In this document: in pieces, positions 6,321 through 45,482 of the stretch
How positions within the stretch are numbered: position 1 is the first letter of the stretch
Layout: every line of letters begins with the position of its first letter
Origin: Escherichia phage vB_EcoM_PD205
Direction: 5' to 3' (one strand)
DNA length: 64,000 bases
Sequence record: ON922919
Program-made: the position numbers and the translations under genes
Notes under the pieces: model-generated
Told to the model about the DNA's origin: nothing
Seen by the model: the letters and a program-made list of their open reading frames with translations, nothing else
Databases searched by the model: none

Positions 6321-6424
6321 TTTGTACTCTCCAGATTTATGTGATTTACGGGTGAACTCGTCGGTGAGAACACCCAAACAAAAGGATAAAAGTTCAATGA
6401 TTAGTGGATGCATTTACATCCTTT

Positions 6425-6439
6425 AGACGCGGAGCGTCT
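6425..6439 (-). promoter_or_regulatory. N4 vRNAP-type hairpin promoter (AGACGC-GGA-GCGTCT); predicted +1 near 6421
   Basis: Perfect 6 bp stem with GGA loop, core GCGGAGC; intergenic between stop of 6446..6724 and gene 5940..6320; predicted +1 template base C. Confidence 0.55.
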
Positions 6440-6724: not shown

Positions 6725-6757
6725 AGCTTAATCTCCAATAGTTGAATGATATCCTAT

Positions 6758-6772
6758 AGATGCGGAGCATCT
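6758..6772 (-). promoter_or_regulatory. N4 vRNAP-type hairpin promoter (AGATGC-GGA-GCATCT); predicted +1 near 6754
   Basis: Perfect 6 bp stem with GGA loop; intergenic; predicted +1 template base C. Confidence 0.55.
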
Positions 6773-7149: not shown

Positions 7150-7329
7150 TTATGGTATGTAAGACATCCAGGTTAACATTTCAGCTTTGGCTTCTTGGTA
7201 TTCAGCTTCAACTACTTGAGGGTCAAATTGATTTCTATCATTTTGTAAACCCTCATGTGTTCTTACAGCTTCTTCGAATCTTTCCAGAGCTTCTTGTGGT
7301 GATTTAGCTTTGCAATCTGTCAGGGACAT
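7150..7329 (-). CDS. hypothetical small protein (59 aa, below ORF-track cutoff)
   Basis: Own translation: MSLTDCKAKSPQEALERFEEAVRTHEGLQNDRNQFDPQVVEAEYQEAKAEMLTWMSYIP; GGAG RBS; fills gap between annotated ORFs. Confidence 0.3.
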   Translation of the reverse strand: MSLTDCKAKSPQEALERFEEAVRTHEGLQNDRNQFDPQVVEAEYQEAKAEMLTWMSYIP

Positions 7330-7380
7330 TTTACTTCTCCTAAAGTAGATAACTATCTACTTAGTTGAACTATCTAATCT

Positions 7381-7408
7381 TTATAAAAGGAGACTCCGAA
7401 GAGTCTCC
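7381..7408 (-). terminator. rho-independent terminator (GGAGACTC-CGAA-GAGTCTCC; RNA loop UUCG) with U-tract
   Basis: 8 bp perfect stem 7389..7408 followed on minus strand by UUUUAUAA; 9 nt after stop of gene 7417..7740. Confidence 0.65.
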
Positions 7409-7416
7409 TATGTGGT

Positions 7417-7740
7417 TTAGTCTTTAGTCAGGATGTCAATTACTTTGGAATATTCTGCGTTATAGATACGAGCGTTCTCTGAATCCTTGCAGAATTCCTC
7501 GATACTTTTCTTACGCAGAGTCTCAGTCATAGCTGTTTCCTCTGCCAGTTTATTAACAAAGGTATGCATTTCTAATTTAGTACGAATGGCTTGTTTCTCT
7601 GCCATTGTACTTACATATGAATTAAGCATACCTACTGCTTTAGTTGCAGTGCTGAATGTATCTGCAACAGTAGTAGCAGCTGAGTTAACAGTACCAAGTA
7701 AAGTTCCTGCGGTCATACGTACAGTAGCTTGAGTAGTCAT
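7417..7740 (-). CDS. hypothetical early protein
   Basis: ORF track 7417..7818; internal ATG 7740 chosen because it is preceded by CAACTATTGGAG motif (GGAG RBS) and the upstream part overlaps a promoter-like hairpin. Confidence 0.4.
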   Translation of the reverse strand: MTTQATVRMTAGTLLGTVNSAATTVADTFSTATKAVGMLNSYVSTMAEKQAIRTKLEMHTFVNKLAEETAMTETLRKKSIEEFCKDSENARIYNAEYSKVIDILTKD

Positions 7741-7784
7741 GATGATAGCTCCAATAGTTGATGATAGGACGACATGTCCATAAC

Positions 7785-7795
7785 ATGCGGAGCAT
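7785..7795 (-). promoter_or_regulatory. degenerate N4 vRNAP-type hairpin promoter (ATGC-GGA-GCAT, 4 bp stem); predicted +1 near 7779
   Basis: Shares 11 nt core ATGCGGAGCAT with hairpin 6758..6772 but outer stem pairs are lost; 45 nt upstream of ATG 7740; predicted +1 template base C. Confidence 0.35.
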
Positions 7796-7851
7796 CGCTG
7801 ACGAACGAAGTGAGTCAAGCATGTGTAACGTGTAAGGTGGGGTAGGGTAGT

Positions 7852-7922
7852 GGCTACACCGTCAACATACCGGGGGGGCTAGTTGAGTGTAAGGGTGTAG
7901 CCCCAGCCACACCACTGTAGCC
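7852..7922. repeat. intergenic repeat cluster: GGCTACACC (7852..7860) inverted to GGTGTAGCC (7894..7902), plus second direct copy TGTAGCC (7916..7922)
   Basis: Read directly; 9 bp inverted repeat with 33 nt spacer, alternative 7 bp pairing partner 20 nt further on; flanked by GGGTAGGGTAG and a G7 run. Confidence 0.5.
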
Positions 7923-7967
7923 ATACATAACTATGCTACTTTTCATACGCAAAATATGATAGCTATC

Positions 7968-8294
7968 TTACTTATAAGCAGTTAAATAGGAGGAAGGAAT
8001 CTGGGAGAGGATGTAGTCATAGTAATAGCAATATGCTTCACTATAGGTAGAGTTTATAGGCATACCTATGTAGTCAAACACCCATAAACAGAAATGATTG
8101 AGTTCGTGGATGAGTGTATGTAAAGGTTCCTTGAAGATACCAATCAATACACGATTACCAGAGTAAGTAGTATACCCTTTACAACCTTCCAAGTCTGGCT
8201 CATACCCTTTGAGCTTCTTGTATTTCTTAATGAAGGTATCCTGGTCGAATACTACTTCTAACTGTACCGGGTAGGGTGCTGTGTTTAGTTTCAT
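7968..8294 (-). CDS. hypothetical protein with HExxH motif (possible minimal zinc metallopeptidase-like protein)
   Basis: 108 aa; LIHELNHFCLWVFDY contains HELNH; ATG start. Confidence 0.35.
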   Translation of the reverse strand: MKLNTAPYPVQLEVVFDQDTFIKKYKKLKGYEPDLEGCKGYTTYSGNRVLIGIFKEPLHTLIHELNHFCLWVFDYIGMPINSTYSEAYCYYYDYILSQIPSSYLTAYK

Positions 8295-8575
8295 TGTCTT
8301 TCCTTATAGATTGGGGTGTTATCCTCGAAGGATAGGATGTACTTGTCTGTATTAAGATGCCAAGGACTAAAGCTACCCTGCCAGGACATAGGTGTTCCTG
8401 GCTCAAGTAGATATACTTCTGCCTTCTTATTGTATAGGAAGAGTAATCCTTGTAATTCATGCAGAGACTGCTCATCTGGAACCAAGATAAGTACATCTGC
8501 GTCTAGATTAGCTATATCTTTATGACGGTAGTAGTCATCCTCAAGTACTGCTGAATAAATTTTACTGATAACCAT
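8291..8575 (-). CDS. hypothetical protein, member of tandem paralog family
   Basis: 94 aa; shared motif DADVLILVPDEQSLHELQGLLFL...VYLLEP. Confidence 0.4.
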   Translation of the reverse strand: MVISKIYSAVLEDDYYRHKDIANLDADVLILVPDEQSLHELQGLLFLYNKKAEVYLLEPGTPMSWQGSFSPWHLNTDKYILSFEDNTPIYKERQ

Positions 8576-8892
8576 TAGAGACTCTCGTCGCTAGTTAAAT
8601 ATGAGGTAGAAGGATACAGGGTAATAAGTCTACCAGTTAAGGTAGTAACTACCTTAGGTTCACTGGAGGAATAGATATACACAACTACATTCTCTGGAAC
8701 TTCAATGGAGGTATCTATTTTAATAAAGGTAATAGGTACACCCAACATGAGGCAGGTTCCGATGAACTCATCTGCTTTTTCGCATTGTTCGTAGTACATG
8801 GTCATAGGCGTGCTTATTCTAATCCAGTGAGATTTACCTACCCCCAGATTAAGGGGACTGGTACTACGATAACTCAAACCATAGAAGCGCAT
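8575..8892 (-). CDS. hypothetical protein, possible diverged member of tandem paralog family
   Basis: 105 aa; similar size and position; TAATG overlap with downstream gene. Confidence 0.35.
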   Translation of the reverse strand: MRFYGLSYRSTSPLNLGVGKSHWIRISTPMTMYYEQCEKADEFIGTCLMLGVPITFIKIDTSIEVPENVVVYIYSSSEPKVVTTLTGRLITLYPSTSYLTSDESL

Positions 8893-8895
8893 ACC

Positions 8896-9210
8896 TTACT
8901 TCCTTACATAGTAGTAACGGGATTCACCATCCTCATAGCGACAATCCCATTGGTAATCATCAGACACCATCATGTATGGGATAGGTTCCCCGGAGTTAAA
9001 GTTGGTATAGACAGATGGAGGAACAATACATACAACCTTACGGTCATTACCTGCTAAGAAGAGTTGACCCCTTACTTCATGGTAGTCCTCTAAAGTAGGA
9101 ACCAGGATTACTTGCTGGGGGTTGCTGTCCATGACTTCTTCTAAAGTGAAGTCTCCTGCATACATAGCCCCCCTTCCAGTAAAACTAGGGATGGTCATTA
9201 TGAATTTCAT
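8896..9210 (-). CDS. hypothetical protein, member of tandem paralog family
   Basis: 104 aa; PQQVILVPTLEDYHEVRGQLFL...VVCIVPPS; AAGGAGGGAG RBS upstream of ATG 9210. Confidence 0.4.
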   Translation of the reverse strand: MKFIMTIPSFTGRGAMYAGDFTLEEVMDSNPQQVILVPTLEDYHEVRGQLFLAGNDRKVVCIVPPSVYTNFNSGEPIPYMMVSDDYQWDCRYEDGESRYYYVRK

Positions 9211-9574
9211 GATTGGTTCTCCCTCCTTTAGGGATAGGTCTGAAGTAAATGGAAAGTGTTTTATTAAAGACGTTATGGTCTGCTATCATTTCCCAACCAG
9301 CTATCTTATAGAAATGTACACCAGGGAAAAATGTTTCGAAGTTTGCATACTCGGTAAGGTCATACACCTTTGGTTCAGTAAGTATCTCAGCATTAAGTTG
9401 CAGGTTGGTTAAGAAAAAAGAACCAATAATCTCGTGGGATTCGTCGCAATCAGGAAAGAATACTGATTGTCTTGGTGATAATATCTTACTTACTACCTCA
9501 GGTTCCTCAAGATAATACGGTTCTTGTTTACGGAGTACTCCAGTAATATCAATATCAAAAGCGTAGATGCTCAT
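9185..9574 (-). CDS. hypothetical protein, member of tandem paralog family
   Basis: 129 aa; ...DCDESHEIIGSFFL...AEILTEP; GGAGG RBS; preceded by terminator hairpin. Confidence 0.4.
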   Translation of the reverse strand: MSIYAFDIDITGVLRKQEPYYLEEPEVVSKILSPRQSVFFPDCDESHEIIGSFFLTNLQLNAEILTEPKVYDLTEYANFETFFPGVHFYKIAGWEMIADHNVFNKTLSIYFRPIPKGGRTNHEIHNDHP

Positions 9575-9589
9575 ATTTGCATACCTCCT

Positions 9590-9626
9590 GAAAAAGAAAT
9601 GGGGTAGAGCCTCTCGACTCTACCCC
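9590..9626 (-). terminator. rho-independent terminator (GGGGTAGAG / CTCTACCCC, 9 bp stem) with U-tract
   Basis: Hairpin 9601..9626; on minus strand followed by AUUUCUUUUU (9590..9600). Confidence 0.6.
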
Positions 9627-9774
9627 TTACCGTTTTCTATCACGGGTCAGTTCATCACCCTAGATACATGTGTATCGTTAGCCTACTAGGTAGGAAAGGA
9701 GCCGGGCAACCCTGACTGTAGAAGTTATTAACTCTTTACGAGTACCGCCACTGTCTACTAGGCGGCATGACTAA

Positions 9775-10065
9775 TCACATCATCACCGTCATCCGAACAC
9801 TGTCTTTGCTTCGCCTGACGGAGACACTATGAGGTAATTTTGTGAAGAACACAAGAGAGGAGGGGCGTTTTTCTAAAGAGTAAGTTTCTCTTGGTTCTAA
9901 GATTTTAATGCCGGGTCGATTCTCTAAAAGCATCATCCCAGCTAATTCATGGTAGGTATTTTCATCATGTGTGATGATAATGTCATCTGAAAGAATACCA
10001 GCCTTAGTGTGGTCTAGTTCTTTGTATTCATCTTTAGAGTCATGGACTCTCATATAGATTCTCAA
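9775..10065 (-). CDS. hypothetical protein, member of tandem paralog family
   Basis: 96 aa; ...SDDIIITHDENTYHELAGMMLL...IKILEP; start codon at 10065 is TTG with AAGGAG 7 nt upstream. Confidence 0.35.
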   Translation of the reverse strand: MRIYMRVHDSKDEYKELDHTKAGILSDDIIITHDENTYHELAGMMLLENRPGIKILEPRETYSLEKRPSSLVFFTKLPHSVSVRRSKDSVRMTVMM

Positions 10066-10236
10066 AGGTTACTCCTTTTGGGAATAGGGTCATCGGAACA
10101 TTACATACTATTTAGTATCATGAACTTTTTCTATATCATGACTAAAGTGTAACTGTATGGTATCGTTTCTTCAAGGGGTATATCACCCCAAGAAAAGAAT
10201 CTTCTTTAATAGACATAACTTTGTAGCGAGATAAGT

Positions 10237-10926
10237 ATGAGTGAACTAACTAAGCAGCAGATTATTAATGCCTTACCTGCTAACTTCAAAAACAGTGTGA
10301 CCCAAGAGTTAGTAGACACAATTAACAACATAACCCAAGACCAACTGGTTGCTGAGTCCTTCCGTGAAAACTTCATCTCCTACTCTGGTGTTATGAAGGA
10401 AGGTAAGTTTAAGACCCAGGACTACATGAATGCAGTTCAGTATGTGACTTACAAACATATGGGCTACTCAAATAAGGAAGCCTACTTCAAGACATTCCCT
10501 AACCGACAAGCAGAACTTGTTGCACGAGGAACCAGTGAGAAAGATATTAGTGCCTACGTATCTGCTTACCACAGGGGTAAGTTAGTTAACCTCATCATGG
10601 AACAAAGTTTGGTTCCAGTGTGGATTGTGAACCAGGACAATTATCAGAAGGCAATCAACGTTCAGGTTGAACTGATGACTACAGCAGCAAGTGAGAAAGT
10701 AAGATGTGATGCAGCTAACTCTATCCTTACTCACTTAGCTAAACCGAAAGACCAGGTAACTAATATCAACCTGGACTTGAGAGAGAACTCCGGATTGACC
10801 GACCTCAGGGCAACACTTGCTGCATTAGCTGAACAGCAGATTAATGCAATCAACAGTGGTGTACCCACCAAAGAGGTTGCTGGTTCTAAACTAGTACGTG
10901 CAGATGAGGACATTACAGATGTCTGA
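10237..10926 (+). CDS. hypothetical protein; position immediately upstream of and overlapping terminase large subunit suggests terminase small subunit
   Basis: 229 aa ORF, first gene of plus-strand late module; function inferred from synteny only. Confidence 0.4.
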   Translation: MSELTKQQIINALPANFKNSVTQELVDTINNITQDQLVAESFRENFISYSGVMKEGKFKTQDYMNAVQYVTYKHMGYSNKEAYFKTFPNRQAELVARGTSEKDISAYVSAYHRGKLVNLIMEQSLVPVWIVNQDNYQKAINVQVELMTTAASEKVRCDAANSILTHLAKPKDQVTNINLDLRENSGLTDLRATLAALAEQQINAINSGVPTKEVAGSKLVRADEDITDV

Positions 10927-12508
10927 GTTAATTAAGCAGGAACTGGATGAATGGCTAGACCAGGTGGATTACTCCCACCTTAATTCATCTAACTATGTTC
11001 CTAGTCAGTTTGCTCTTACCTTTGCCAACTTTATTAAGTTGGTTAACGGCAAAGAGGGTGAGTCCAACAAAACACCTCCAGTTCACTTGAAGATGCTGGA
11101 TAAGATGATTAGTCCGAACCAGTATGTAGTTAACCTGTGCTTCCGTGGTGCAGGTAAGACTGCTGTGTTCATGGAATACTTTACTTTGTTCCTGGCAGTG
11201 TTTGGTCACTTACCAAGTTTGGGTAAGGTAGAGGGAATGATTTACGTATCTGACTCAATGGATAACGGTGCTAAGTCTGCACGTAAGAACATCGAGTTCC
11301 GTTACAAGAATAGTGAGTTTCTTCAGCAATGGATACCTGAAGCTACTTTTACAGATAACCTGTTAGAGTTTCGTAATGTAGAAGGGCATCGACTAGGTGT
11401 TAAGCTGTTTGGTGCTAAGACAGGTCTTCGTGGTACGAAGATATATGGTAAACGTCCAACACTCTGCGTACTGGATGACTTGATTAGTGATGGTGATGCT
11501 AACTCCAAGACGAGCATGGAAGCTATTAAAGACACCGTTTATAAAGGTGTGAACCATGCTCTTGACCCTACTCGTCGTAAAGTAATCTTCAACGGTACTC
11601 CCTTTAATAAGGAAGACATTATCATTGAAGCTGTTGAGTCTGGTGCATGGGATGTCAACGTATGGCCTGTATGTGAGAAGTTCCCTTGCAGTAGAGAAGA
11701 ATTTCAGGGTGCATGGGATGACCGTTTCTCTTACGACTACATTAAAGCCCAATATGACATGGCAGTTAAGACTGGTAAGCTGGCAGGTTTCTATCAGGAA
11801 CTTATGCTCCGTATCAGTTCTGAAGATGAGAGACTGGTTCAGGATAGTGAAATTAGATGGTATAGCAGACAGCAACTATTAAGGATGAAGTCTTGCTATA
11901 ACTATTACATCACAACCGACTTTGCTACATCGGAGAAACAGACCAGTGACTACAGTGTCATATCAGTTTGGGCTTATAGTTCTAATGGAGATTGGTTCTG
12001 GGTTGATGGTGTGGCTAATCGTCAGCTTATGGATAAAAACTTTGATGACCTGTTCCGTCTGGTTCAAGAATACCAACCACAAAACGTTGGGGTCGAAATC
12101 ACAGGGCAGCAAGGTGGATTCATTTCACTCCTTCAGAAGGAAATGATTAACCGTAATGTCTTCTTTAACTTTGCATCTTCTGAGGGTGGTAAGCCAGGCA
12201 TCCGTCCTGTAACTTCTAAGCTGTCACGCTTTAACCTGGTAGTTCCATGGTTCAAAGCTGGTAAGATGTATTTCCCGGAAGAGTTGAGAGACTCAACTAT
12301 TATGGGTCTGTTCATGGGTCAGATTAAACTAGCTACCATTAATGGAATCAAAGGCAAGGATGACTGTATTGATACTATCTCCATGCTGGGTTATCTCAAT
12401 CCTTGGAAGCCGCAAGCAGGTATGACTATGGTGGATAATAAGGGTGACCCAATGTGGGATGACGAAGAAGAAGATAGTGTTAACCCACTACGTTCATACA
12501 TTGTGTGA
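10919..12508 (+). CDS. terminase large subunit
   Basis: ORF track 10898..12508; ATG 10919 preferred (GAGGA RBS, ATG overlaps upstream stop); Walker A-like LCFRGAGKTAV, Walker B-like LCVLDDLISDGD, C-terminal nuclease-like region. Confidence 0.8.
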   Translation: MSELIKQELDEWLDQVDYSHLNSSNYVPSQFALTFANFIKLVNGKEGESNKTPPVHLKMLDKMISPNQYVVNLCFRGAGKTAVFMEYFTLFLAVFGHLPSLGKVEGMIYVSDSMDNGAKSARKNIEFRYKNSEFLQQWIPEATFTDNLLEFRNVEGHRLGVKLFGAKTGLRGTKIYGKRPTLCVLDDLISDGDANSKTSMEAIKDTVYKGVNHALDPTRRKVIFNGTPFNKEDIIIEAVESGAWDVNVWPVCEKFPCSREEFQGAWDDRFSYDYIKAQYDMAVKTGKLAGFYQELMLRISSEDERLVQDSEIRWYSRQQLLRMKSCYNYYITTDFATSEKQTSDYSVISVWAYSSNGDWFWVDGVANRQLMDKNFDDLFRLVQEYQPQNVGVEITGQQGGFISLLQKEMINRNVFFNFASSEGGKPGIRPVTSKLSRFNLVVPWFKAGKMYFPEELRDSTIMGLFMGQIKLATINGIKGKDDCIDTISMLGYLNPWKPQAGMTMVDNKGDPMWDDEEEDSVNPLRSYIV

Positions 12509-45127: not shown

Positions 45128-45412
45128 GTTCCCCGTTTCTAATACACGGACGGGGACACTCCATGGTCGTTTGATAATCAGGACGACTCACTCCTGACTG
45201 ACGCTTGGCTTATTAGGCTGCCATCAGAACAACATCATCGTTTGCATTTATGTTATTGGTTCGTTTCTAAAAAACCGCATAATCGCTTACGAAAACTATC
45301 AAAGAGTACACTAGCACAGGTAGCTACCCTGCCGTCTTCTCTATTTACACCGGCTACAGTGTAAACCTCCGCACGTTAGCCTAATGTACTCATTGATAGG
45401 ATGTCAGTAGGT

Positions 45413-45482
45413 CGGGGGCTGGATTCGAACCAGCGAGAGAAGTAGCGACCATCTGCACATGCCTACGTGCTACCCCGACCAT
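45413..45482 (-). tRNA. probable tRNA gene (about 70 nt; anticodon uncertain, candidates GCU or CGC depending on loop register)
   Basis: Minus strand: 7 bp perfect acceptor stem (GTCGGGG / CCCCGAC), 4 bp D-stem (GCAC / GTGC) with GG-containing D-loop, perfect T-arm GCTGG-TTCGAAT-CCAGC; anticodon stem imperfect and variable loop short, so needs tRNAscan-SE or ARAGORN confirmation. Confidence 0.45.

Follow-up and report, generated by a model that had tools for sequence, protein, structure and literature searches.

We analyzed a window of 64,000 nucleotides from Escherichia phage vB_EcoM_PD205 (sequence record ON922919) and characterized in it a tandem array of five small minus-strand genes, designated E, D, C, B and A in reading order. 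Our best explanation, to which we give a probability of roughly one half, is that the array is a Schitoviridae-specific set of ancient paralogs at the right end of the linear genome, organized in two expression units and serving as an accessory module of binding proteins. The founding members of the family would be gp70 and gp71 of phage N4, which correspond to E and D, respectively. In the proposed mechanism, E would be transcribed alone from a conserved sigma70-like promoter, and D-C-B-A, together with the downstream gene Z, would be transcribed by read-through of a structured RNA and terminator located after E. The array would lie outside the early programme driven by the virion RNA polymerase (vRNAP) and could not be expressed until the final segment of the genome is inside the cell. 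Its proteins might act stoichiometrically as small binding modulators of host, or possibly phage, macromolecules. A proximal core, E-D-C-B, would be conserved and the distal part (A, the orthogroups u24 and u57, and the unrelated Z and u49) would be reshuffled between strains, giving each phage its own repertoire.

The first-pass annotation had proposed a tandem array of diverged paralogs at this locus, and its five minus-strand open reading frames (ORFs) were all present with exactly the coordinates and lengths that it gave, as was every peptide string that it quoted. E (9775..10065, 96 aa, phrog_7213) has a TTG start 5 nt after an AAGGAG sequence; it is the most widely conserved member of the family and putatively forms its own transcription unit. 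D (9185..9574, 129 aa, phrog_9160) is preceded by the ribosome-binding site (RBS) AGGAGG and is the longest and most widely distributed subtype, as well as the first gene of the putative D-C-B-A-Z operon. The remaining genes are C (8896..9210, 104 aa, phrog_11661; gp71.1 in phage G7C), B (8575..8892, 105 aa, phrog_12099; G7C gp71.2) and A (8291..8575, 94 aa, phrog_16338), followed by Z (7968-8294, phrog_1365), which is the last gene of the operon and is unrelated to A-E; all six genes are on the minus strand. Each of A-E matched one PHROGs group (E-values of 1e-41 to 1e-64), and every PHROGs group matched is annotated as ‘unknown function’.

To assess the relationship among the five proteins, we compared the Smith-Waterman score of each pair with those of 2000 shuffles (shuffled mean ~25, standard deviation ~4.5). 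The A-E, A-C and C-D pairs scored 71, 60 and 61, respectively, and none of the 2000 shuffles scored as high (Gumbel p 1e-6 to 4e-5); the A-D, C-E, D-E and B-D pairs were marginal on their own (p 0.009-0.03), and the pairwise identities were just 17-34%. Through the three strong pairs, A, C, D and E are connected transitively. We gathered the locus from 13 relatives and N4, clustered the ORFs into orthogroups and compared the ortholog alignments with HHalign, which gave 95% for A-C, 92% for A-E, 76% for C-D and 46% for A-D, with none of the control orthogroups from the same loci (gp1, u16, u20, u28) above 20%. The core motif is common to the four array proteins A, C, D and E and to gp70 and gp71 of N4. 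It is a hydrophobic strand followed by P-[DT]-x-[ED]-x-x-[HY]-E-h-x-G-x-x-h-L-x-[NG] and a second strand often ending in EP(G), and the similarity reaches into the C-terminal part. In a 13-sequence family alignment that included both N4 proteins, H39 and G43 were invariant; in a 23-sequence alignment the glycine remained invariant and the proline was at least 90% conserved. Because the shuffle tests, the profile comparison and the shared alignment agree, we regard A, C, D and E as true, anciently duplicated paralogs of one family on the evidence of these comparisons. The contrary proposal, that the motif arose by chance or composition among unrelated ORFans, can draw on the low identities and on the C-E, D-E and A-D pairs, which are marginal alone. 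It is exceedingly improbable, given shuffles that never reached the A-E, A-C and C-D scores, profile-profile values of up to 95% with clean controls, structure models of C and A orthologs that independently match the model of D, and the recurrence of the motif in every array gene of a distant phage contig described below; we consider it refuted for A, C, D and E, and conceivable for B only.

B had been listed by the first-pass annotation as a possible member, and the profile evidence makes it a probable fifth, strongly diverged paralog. Among the array members it gave a pairwise signal with D alone (p=0.016). However, the B orthogroup aligned in the correct register to a 72-sequence core-family profile from which B was excluded (HHalign 50%, E=1.7e-4), and its orthologs scored a median of 7.5 bits against the core hidden Markov model (HMM), compared to a shuffled 99th percentile of 4.4 (empirical p ~0.001). 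B keeps the glycine and the register of the motif, with the hallmark histidine changed to aspartate (ADEFIG), while the B ortholog of Shigella virus Moo19 retains the histidine (EPSEEAHEFIG). The orthogroup u24 (phrog_12606) was likewise related by sequence to the core family (75%, E=2.5e-5, 0/1800 shuffles), suggesting that B and u24 are both linked to the family weakly but significantly. Z did not behave as a member in any of these tests, as its profile match was 0.2% (p=0.17), no pairwise match was found and the motif is missing.

The orthology of the first two genes extends the family to N4. E matched N4 gp70 (YP_950548; phmmer 3.5e-17) and D matched N4 gp71 (YP_950549; phmmer 1e-7), consistent with the G7C record, in which the E ortholog is annotated gp70 ‘similar to N4 gp70’ and the D ortholog gp71 ‘similar to N4 gp71’. 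Since E and D are orthologous to gp70 and gp71, the two N4 proteins are therefore paralogs of each other. The N4 genes resemble those of the array in their placement at the right end, where gp70, gp71 and gp72 are divergent from gp69, and gp70 and gp71 carry the motif with its invariant histidine and glycine; N4 differs in having two copies and a 42-aa gp72, compared to five family members and Z in the window. Our literature search found no description of gp70 and gp71 as mutual paralogs and no functional data on them. Similarly, PHROGs 7213, 9160, 11661, 12099, 16338 and 12606 are separate, unlinked groups in that database and form one superfamily here. The result merges at least 5-6 orthologous groups of ‘unknown function’ and the N4 ORFans gp70 and gp71 into one Schitoviridae-specific family.

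The first-pass annotation did not recognize the family, and neither did our searches, with no match in Pfam, NCBIfam, PADLOC, PDB sequences or PDB folds. A profile search of 5.8e9 proteins recovered 225 family proteins, and the long contigs that bear them are ~70 kb. An exhaustive HMMER scan of 1.84e9 cluster representatives gave 23 matches, all of them small proteins but one; P0136 (1112 aa, 7 stretches), the sole non-phage-like match, was rejected as a spurious hit to a low-complexity tandem-repeat protein. A single-protein scan for related loci added just three. The family was found only in N4-like phages (Schitoviridae), and its sequence distribution is very narrow. On a more distant 72.8-kb contig (L016), TerL and gp69 are followed by six divergent genes of 96, 121, 112, 84, 112 and 105 aa, and these by Gp1 and Gp2; each of the six has the motif or a match to the profile. 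In Achromobacter phage JWAlpha, of another subfamily, a gp69-like gene is followed by a gp70-like gene divergent from it, then by an annotated terminator, four small genes and the terminal repeat. Three of the five JWAlpha genes matched the family HMM (24.7, 21.5 and 10.4 bits), and the 21.5-bit match, JJJB_0087, is annotated as similar to IME11_86, which is an E ortholog.

We then located the array on the phage genome. The Gamaleyavirus coliphages Bp4, ZQ2, PD38, IME11 and G7C matched the array region at 88-94% identity, and by sequence similarity the window is from a Gamaleyavirus (G7C/Bp4-like) of the Schitoviridae, Enquatrovirinae. A direct terminal repeat (DTR), present as one collapsed copy, was placed at 7483..7885 by homology to Mimir124, the UE phages and G7C. 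The 403-bp DTR annotated in Mimir124 aligns to ~7483-7885 of the window, the UE-phage records (401-bp DTR, determined with PhageTerm) begin at 7483-7485, and the linear G7C record has a 1160-bp terminal repeat directly after the B ortholog. The inferred repeat delimits the linear genome at both ends and holds the start of the gp1 homolog (7417-7740), which is on the early-gene side. On the other side of the array are the gp69-like (TerS-like) gene (10237-10926) and TerL (10898-12508), both on the plus strand. Terminal-repeat homology thus places the array at the very right-hand end of the linear genome, with the terminase genes on one side and the right DTR on the other; its genes are divergent from the terminase genes, lie on the strand opposite the late operon and read toward the terminus. 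The array seemingly adjoins the early genes because the assembly is collapsed and circularly permuted.

The promoter content of the region agrees with this placement. N4 vRNAP promoters, which have a short stem and a 3-nt loop, are restricted to the first-injected left end, and N4 late transcripts run leftward from the right half of the genome (N4 review, PMC4496689). We found only four copies of an N4-type vRNAP hairpin promoter (..ATCC..N..GATGC-GGA-GCATC, a 5-bp stem with a GGA loop), all on the early-gene side and all with the template on the plus strand: one inside the inferred DTR just upstream of the gp1 homolog (7774-7796), two at 6749-6771 and 6416-6438, and a fourth ~5 kb into the early/middle region (2465-2487). 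None of the four lies within or upstream of the array. The first-pass annotation had assigned the array to the early region; its right-end position across the terminal repeat and the missing vRNAP promoter indicate that it does not belong there.

The order of the array genes begins with E-D-C in every Gamaleyavirus, with B usually fourth (B is missing in L020). Beside the DTR, the distal part varies in its content, combining A, u24 and u57, which are family or probable members, with the unrelated Z and u49. A belongs to this variable part and is not in G7C, IME11 or Mimir124; A, u24 and u57 are gained or lost between near-identical phages. The G7C array stops after B, and N4 has just E and D. 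We compared copy number across the relatives, as the first-pass annotation had recommended, and the number of recognizable family genes varied from 2 in N4 to ~7-8 in some Gamaleyaviruses. Two database records bear on this region. In Shigella virus Moo19 (L006, 264-2210), ‘gp1-gp6’ correspond to D, C, u57, a second C-like gene, B and A, and the homolog of N4 gp1 is gp8; the published numbering opens with right-end genes because the record starts inside the array. In Klebsiella phage vB_Kpl_K57alpha1.2 (L003, OY979416.1), the homologous region is annotated as DNA primase, exonuclease and DNA polymerase, all pseudogenes; the sequence there encodes an E-D-C-B-A-Z-u24 array, which does not fit, and the annotated features seem to be shifted relative to it.

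The selection analysis addressed a second part of the first-pass annotation, which had suggested that early genes for host takeover or anti-defence had expanded locally while under diversifying selection. The ortholog median ratios of nonsynonymous to synonymous substitution rates (dN/dS) were 0.21 for E, 0.21 for D, 0.19 for C, 0.24 for B and 0.24 for A, with a gene-wide maximum of 0.71 over all pairs, compared to 0.02 for gp69/TerS and 0.10-0.16 for three early accessory genes. These values indicate purifying rather than diversifying selection: judged by their codons, the array genes are real genes under purifying but relaxed constraint, ~10x more relaxed than gp69/TerS, and their diversity arose through ancient duplication and gene turnover beside the repeat, not through gene-wide positive selection. 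The early anti-defence proposal is consistent with copies that are small, numerous and diverged, with the differences in copy number and distal content between close relatives, and with the ~10x relaxation relative to gp69. The marked resistance to restriction-modification (RM) systems reported for Gamaleyavirus Bas96, for which the mechanism is unexplained (PMC11990801), also speaks for it. We consider it unlikely, however, in view of the right-end position past the late operon, the lack of a preceding vRNAP hairpin promoter, the dN/dS of 0.19-0.24 with no gene-wide sign of positive selection, the E-D-C-B order kept in nearly all Gamaleyaviruses examined (all but L020), the age of E and D, which date back to N4 and beyond, and proteins that do not have the strong acidity of DNA mimics. 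Our best explanation leaves room for an anti-defence role that is exerted later, which is possible.

The proposed function of the array proteins draws on their predicted structure and composition. The AlphaFold2 (AF2) model of D has a predicted local distance difference test score (pLDDT) of 81.7 and a predicted template modelling score (pTM) of 0.75, and consists of an alpha/beta domain followed by a beta-sheet. A search of BFVD with this model gave significant matches only to uncharacterized proteins of ~90-120 aa, encoded by N4-like phages that infect Escherichia, Klebsiella (KP8, four proteins), Achromobacter and Pseudomonas. They included the C ortholog of EC1-UPM (M9PK98; E=5.4e-5, template modelling scores 0.60/0.72), the A ortholog PhAPEC5_75 (probability 0.99) and IME11_82 of orthogroup u24/phrog_12606 (probability 0.85); none of the BFVD matches to the D model was individually assigned to E. 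The AF2 model of B, built from B orthologs only, was poor (pLDDT 54.6), and its best-predicted center repeats the helix-strand-helix-strand order of D. A PDB fold search with the D model returned no solved-structure relative. D, C and A are predicted to share this alpha/beta fold, which the family as a whole may adopt.

The array proteins are ~90-135 aa in length, soluble and mildly acidic (isoelectric point 4.6-7.0, net charge 0 to -9), with no transmembrane or signal segments predicted. Near-invariant residues are limited to Pro, His (sometimes Tyr) and Gly at a strand-loop-helix junction, a pattern more suggestive of a structural or binding core than of a catalytic one. Pfam, NCBIfam and PADLOC gave no matches to any of the six proteins (A-E and Z), and a PDB sequence search gave none for the family. 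No known anti-defence or defence-associated family was matched in PADLOC, Pfam, NCBIfam or PDB sequences, none of which is a dedicated anti-defence library, and the library and fold searches revealed no enzyme, nuclease, DNA-binding, DNA-mimic or defence-related signature. Three specific candidates were set aside: a PD-(D/E)XK nuclease, suggested by a ‘PD..E’ string in which the Asp is not conserved; an HExxH protease, as the family motif is HE..G; and an Ocr/ArdA-like DNA mimic, for which the charge is too modest (net 0 to -9) and no structural match was found. A small, non-enzymatic binding or accessory role is thus proposed at low certainty and by analogy.

We also weighed the possibility that the array encodes internal proteins packaged in the virion, which would be synthesized late and would enter the next host along with the DNA in the manner of the T4 internal proteins (IPs). 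The genes adjoin the packaging genes and are probably expressed by the host RNA polymerase (RNAP), as judged from the promoter described below, the products are small, soluble and acidic, and T4 IP loci are likewise hypervariable. The G7C record, however, flags gp67 as ‘confirmed presence in virion’ and does not flag gp70-gp71.2, and no capsid-targeting leader is evident, making this proposal quite improbable.

The proposed expression of the array in two units was examined through the non-coding sequences at its start. The divergent intergenic region between the gp69-like gene and E (10066..10236, 171 bp) is highly conserved, with 90% mean column identity in a 12-phage alignment that took in the Gamaleyaviruses, L016 and N4, far above that of the flanking coding sequence. 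Phylogenetic footprinting of this region revealed, on the minus strand and directed toward E, a hairpin GGGGTGATATACCCC (10189-10175) followed by a sigma70-like -35 hexamer TTGAAG (10174-10169), a 17-nt spacer and a -10 hexamer TACACT (10151-10146). The positions of the hexamers are kept across phages (TTGCAG-17-TAGACT in N4), and the sequence of the spacer varies. A standard sigma70 scan missed this element because only 8 of the 12 hexamer positions match. We infer that TTGAAG-17-TACACT is the host-RNAP promoter of E, and the same intergenic region may carry the promoter of the late operon on the other strand.

The spacer between E and D (9591..9774, minus strand) appears to encode a conserved, structured non-coding RNA of ~190 nt, which would form the 3’ untranslated region of E and the leader of D. 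It ends in an intrinsic terminator with an 11-bp stem (9626-9601) and a T-run, 26 nt upstream of the D ATG, and a terminator is annotated at the equivalent place in JWAlpha. RNAalifold predicted 54 pairs from a 13-phage alignment of the spacer, 11 of them with compensatory changes; 95.8% of cells were paired, compared to 38-47% in slid controls, and none of 500 shuffles reached the count of compensatory pairs. The minimum free energy was -64.4 kcal/mol (z=-2.9). An Rfam scan of 7300-10400 found no family, only a sub-threshold chance match to a miRNA. The spacer RNA resembles terminator leaders, attenuators and phage small RNAs (sRNAs) in its multiple hairpins, its strong terminator just before the next RBS and its compensatory substitutions; it differs from known examples in that no Rfam match, ligand, antiterminator or alternative fold was identified for it. 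We put it forward as a possible attenuator, leader RNA or sRNA in N4-like coliphages, and it is the most intriguing by-product of the analysis, as a candidate for a new phage regulatory element.

Downstream of the terminator, D-C-B-A-Z are tightly packed, with overlaps of 26, 1 and 4 nt and one 3-nt gap (C overlaps the end of D by 26 nt and the start of A overlaps the stop of B by 1 nt), and probably form a translationally coupled operon. We recognized no separate promoter in the 26-nt stretch that follows the terminator and precedes D, and transcription of D-C-B-A-Z therefore probably needs read-through of the terminator. In this arrangement, which we infer from the conserved sequence elements, E would be a separate host-RNAP unit and D-C-B-A-Z would depend on terminator read-through. 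We searched the literature for when N4 gp70/gp71 or their G7C homologs are expressed and what they do, and found nothing relevant, transcript data included; the LUZ7 transcriptome was set aside as a guide to expression as that phage is too distant for transfer.

The array was flanked by the gp69-like gene and the right terminal repeat and lay on the strand opposite the late operon in the window, in 12 or more Gamaleyaviruses, in N4, in L016 and in JWAlpha. Because this position is so strictly conserved across subfamilies, the main rival to our best explanation is a phage-intrinsic role at the genome end or in late development, with subfunctionalized paralogs serving, for example, as terminase or terminal-repeat accessories, in DNA-end binding or protection, in concatemer processing or in control of the late switch. 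The invariant position from the coliphages to Achromobacter phage JWAlpha, the conservation of gp70 across subfamilies and the extreme conservation of the shared gp69-gp70 control region all speak for such a role. Essential machinery, however, is rarely so variable in copy number (2 to ~8) or so relaxed (dN/dS ~0.2 compared to 0.02 for gp69), the genes A, u24 and u57 are gained and lost between near-identical phages, and no DNA-binding or nuclease signature was found in the library and fold searches. We regard the phage-intrinsic role as possible but doubtful.

Several points weigh against the accessory binding-protein module that we favor. The binding-modulator role was reached from negative evidence (no catalytic signature and no enzyme fold) and from analogy, and no annotation bears on function. 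The promoter, the read-through control and the timing were deduced from sequence conservation only, and the membership of B is supported at p ~1e-3 only, with a poor structure model. The end that is injected last is also an awkward location for factors that must neutralize defences early. Both the deep conservation of gp70 and the strict position by the terminase genes and the terminal repeat, which holds in different subfamilies and hosts, would fit a phage-intrinsic role equally well. A more ambitious form of the proposal, in which the right-end module is an overlooked feature of Schitoviridae genomes as a whole, made of a repeatedly expanded, novel-fold family whose distal operon is gated by a riboregulator RNA and whose proteins are new host-directed inhibitors, seems to us a rather unlikely prospect. 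If it were true, the riboregulator would be an attenuator, an antitermination target or an sRNA that times expression to the completion of genome entry or to a late switch, and the inhibitors could target a defence or a host process important late in infection.

The array can be compared with the T4 internal-protein loci, the T7 class I genes (0.3/ocr) and the T5 pre-early region, which are hypervariable accessory loci of small genes. The likeness lies in small, fast-evolving, dispensable-looking genes near a genome end with turnover from strain to strain. Those loci, however, are first-injected or virion-delivered, and the array lies at the end that is injected last and lacks an early promoter; it also consists of paralogs of a single family with a conserved, ordered core, and no sequence or fold similarity to them was found. 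The family is undescribed as such, yet it is an ordinary-looking family of phage accessory ORFans. Its value lies in a confidently predicted fold that has no solved-structure relative, and in a right-end module that combines a promoter-like conserved region with a covarying structured RNA and terminator. N4-like phages are widely used models and therapy candidates in which a large share of the genes has no known function, and the conserved E-D-C-B core with its strain-variable distal part offers a compact experimental target.

Three minor observations were made in the window. In the Z orthologs, HELNH and a downstream SEAYCYY are invariant, an HExxH...E arrangement that is zincin-like; Z had no Pfam, NCBIfam or PDB match, and these residues suggest that it could be a minimal metallopeptidase-like protein. 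A perfect 9-bp hairpin AGGAGACTC-CGAA-GAGTCTCCT, with a UUCG loop on the minus strand, lies at 7388-7409, directly downstream of the gp1 homolog, and is probably a terminator or processing site after gp1. A single tRNA, tRNA-Ala (anticodon CGC; 45409-45480, minus strand), was predicted in the 64-kb window, and three tRNAs are reported for the related UE phages.

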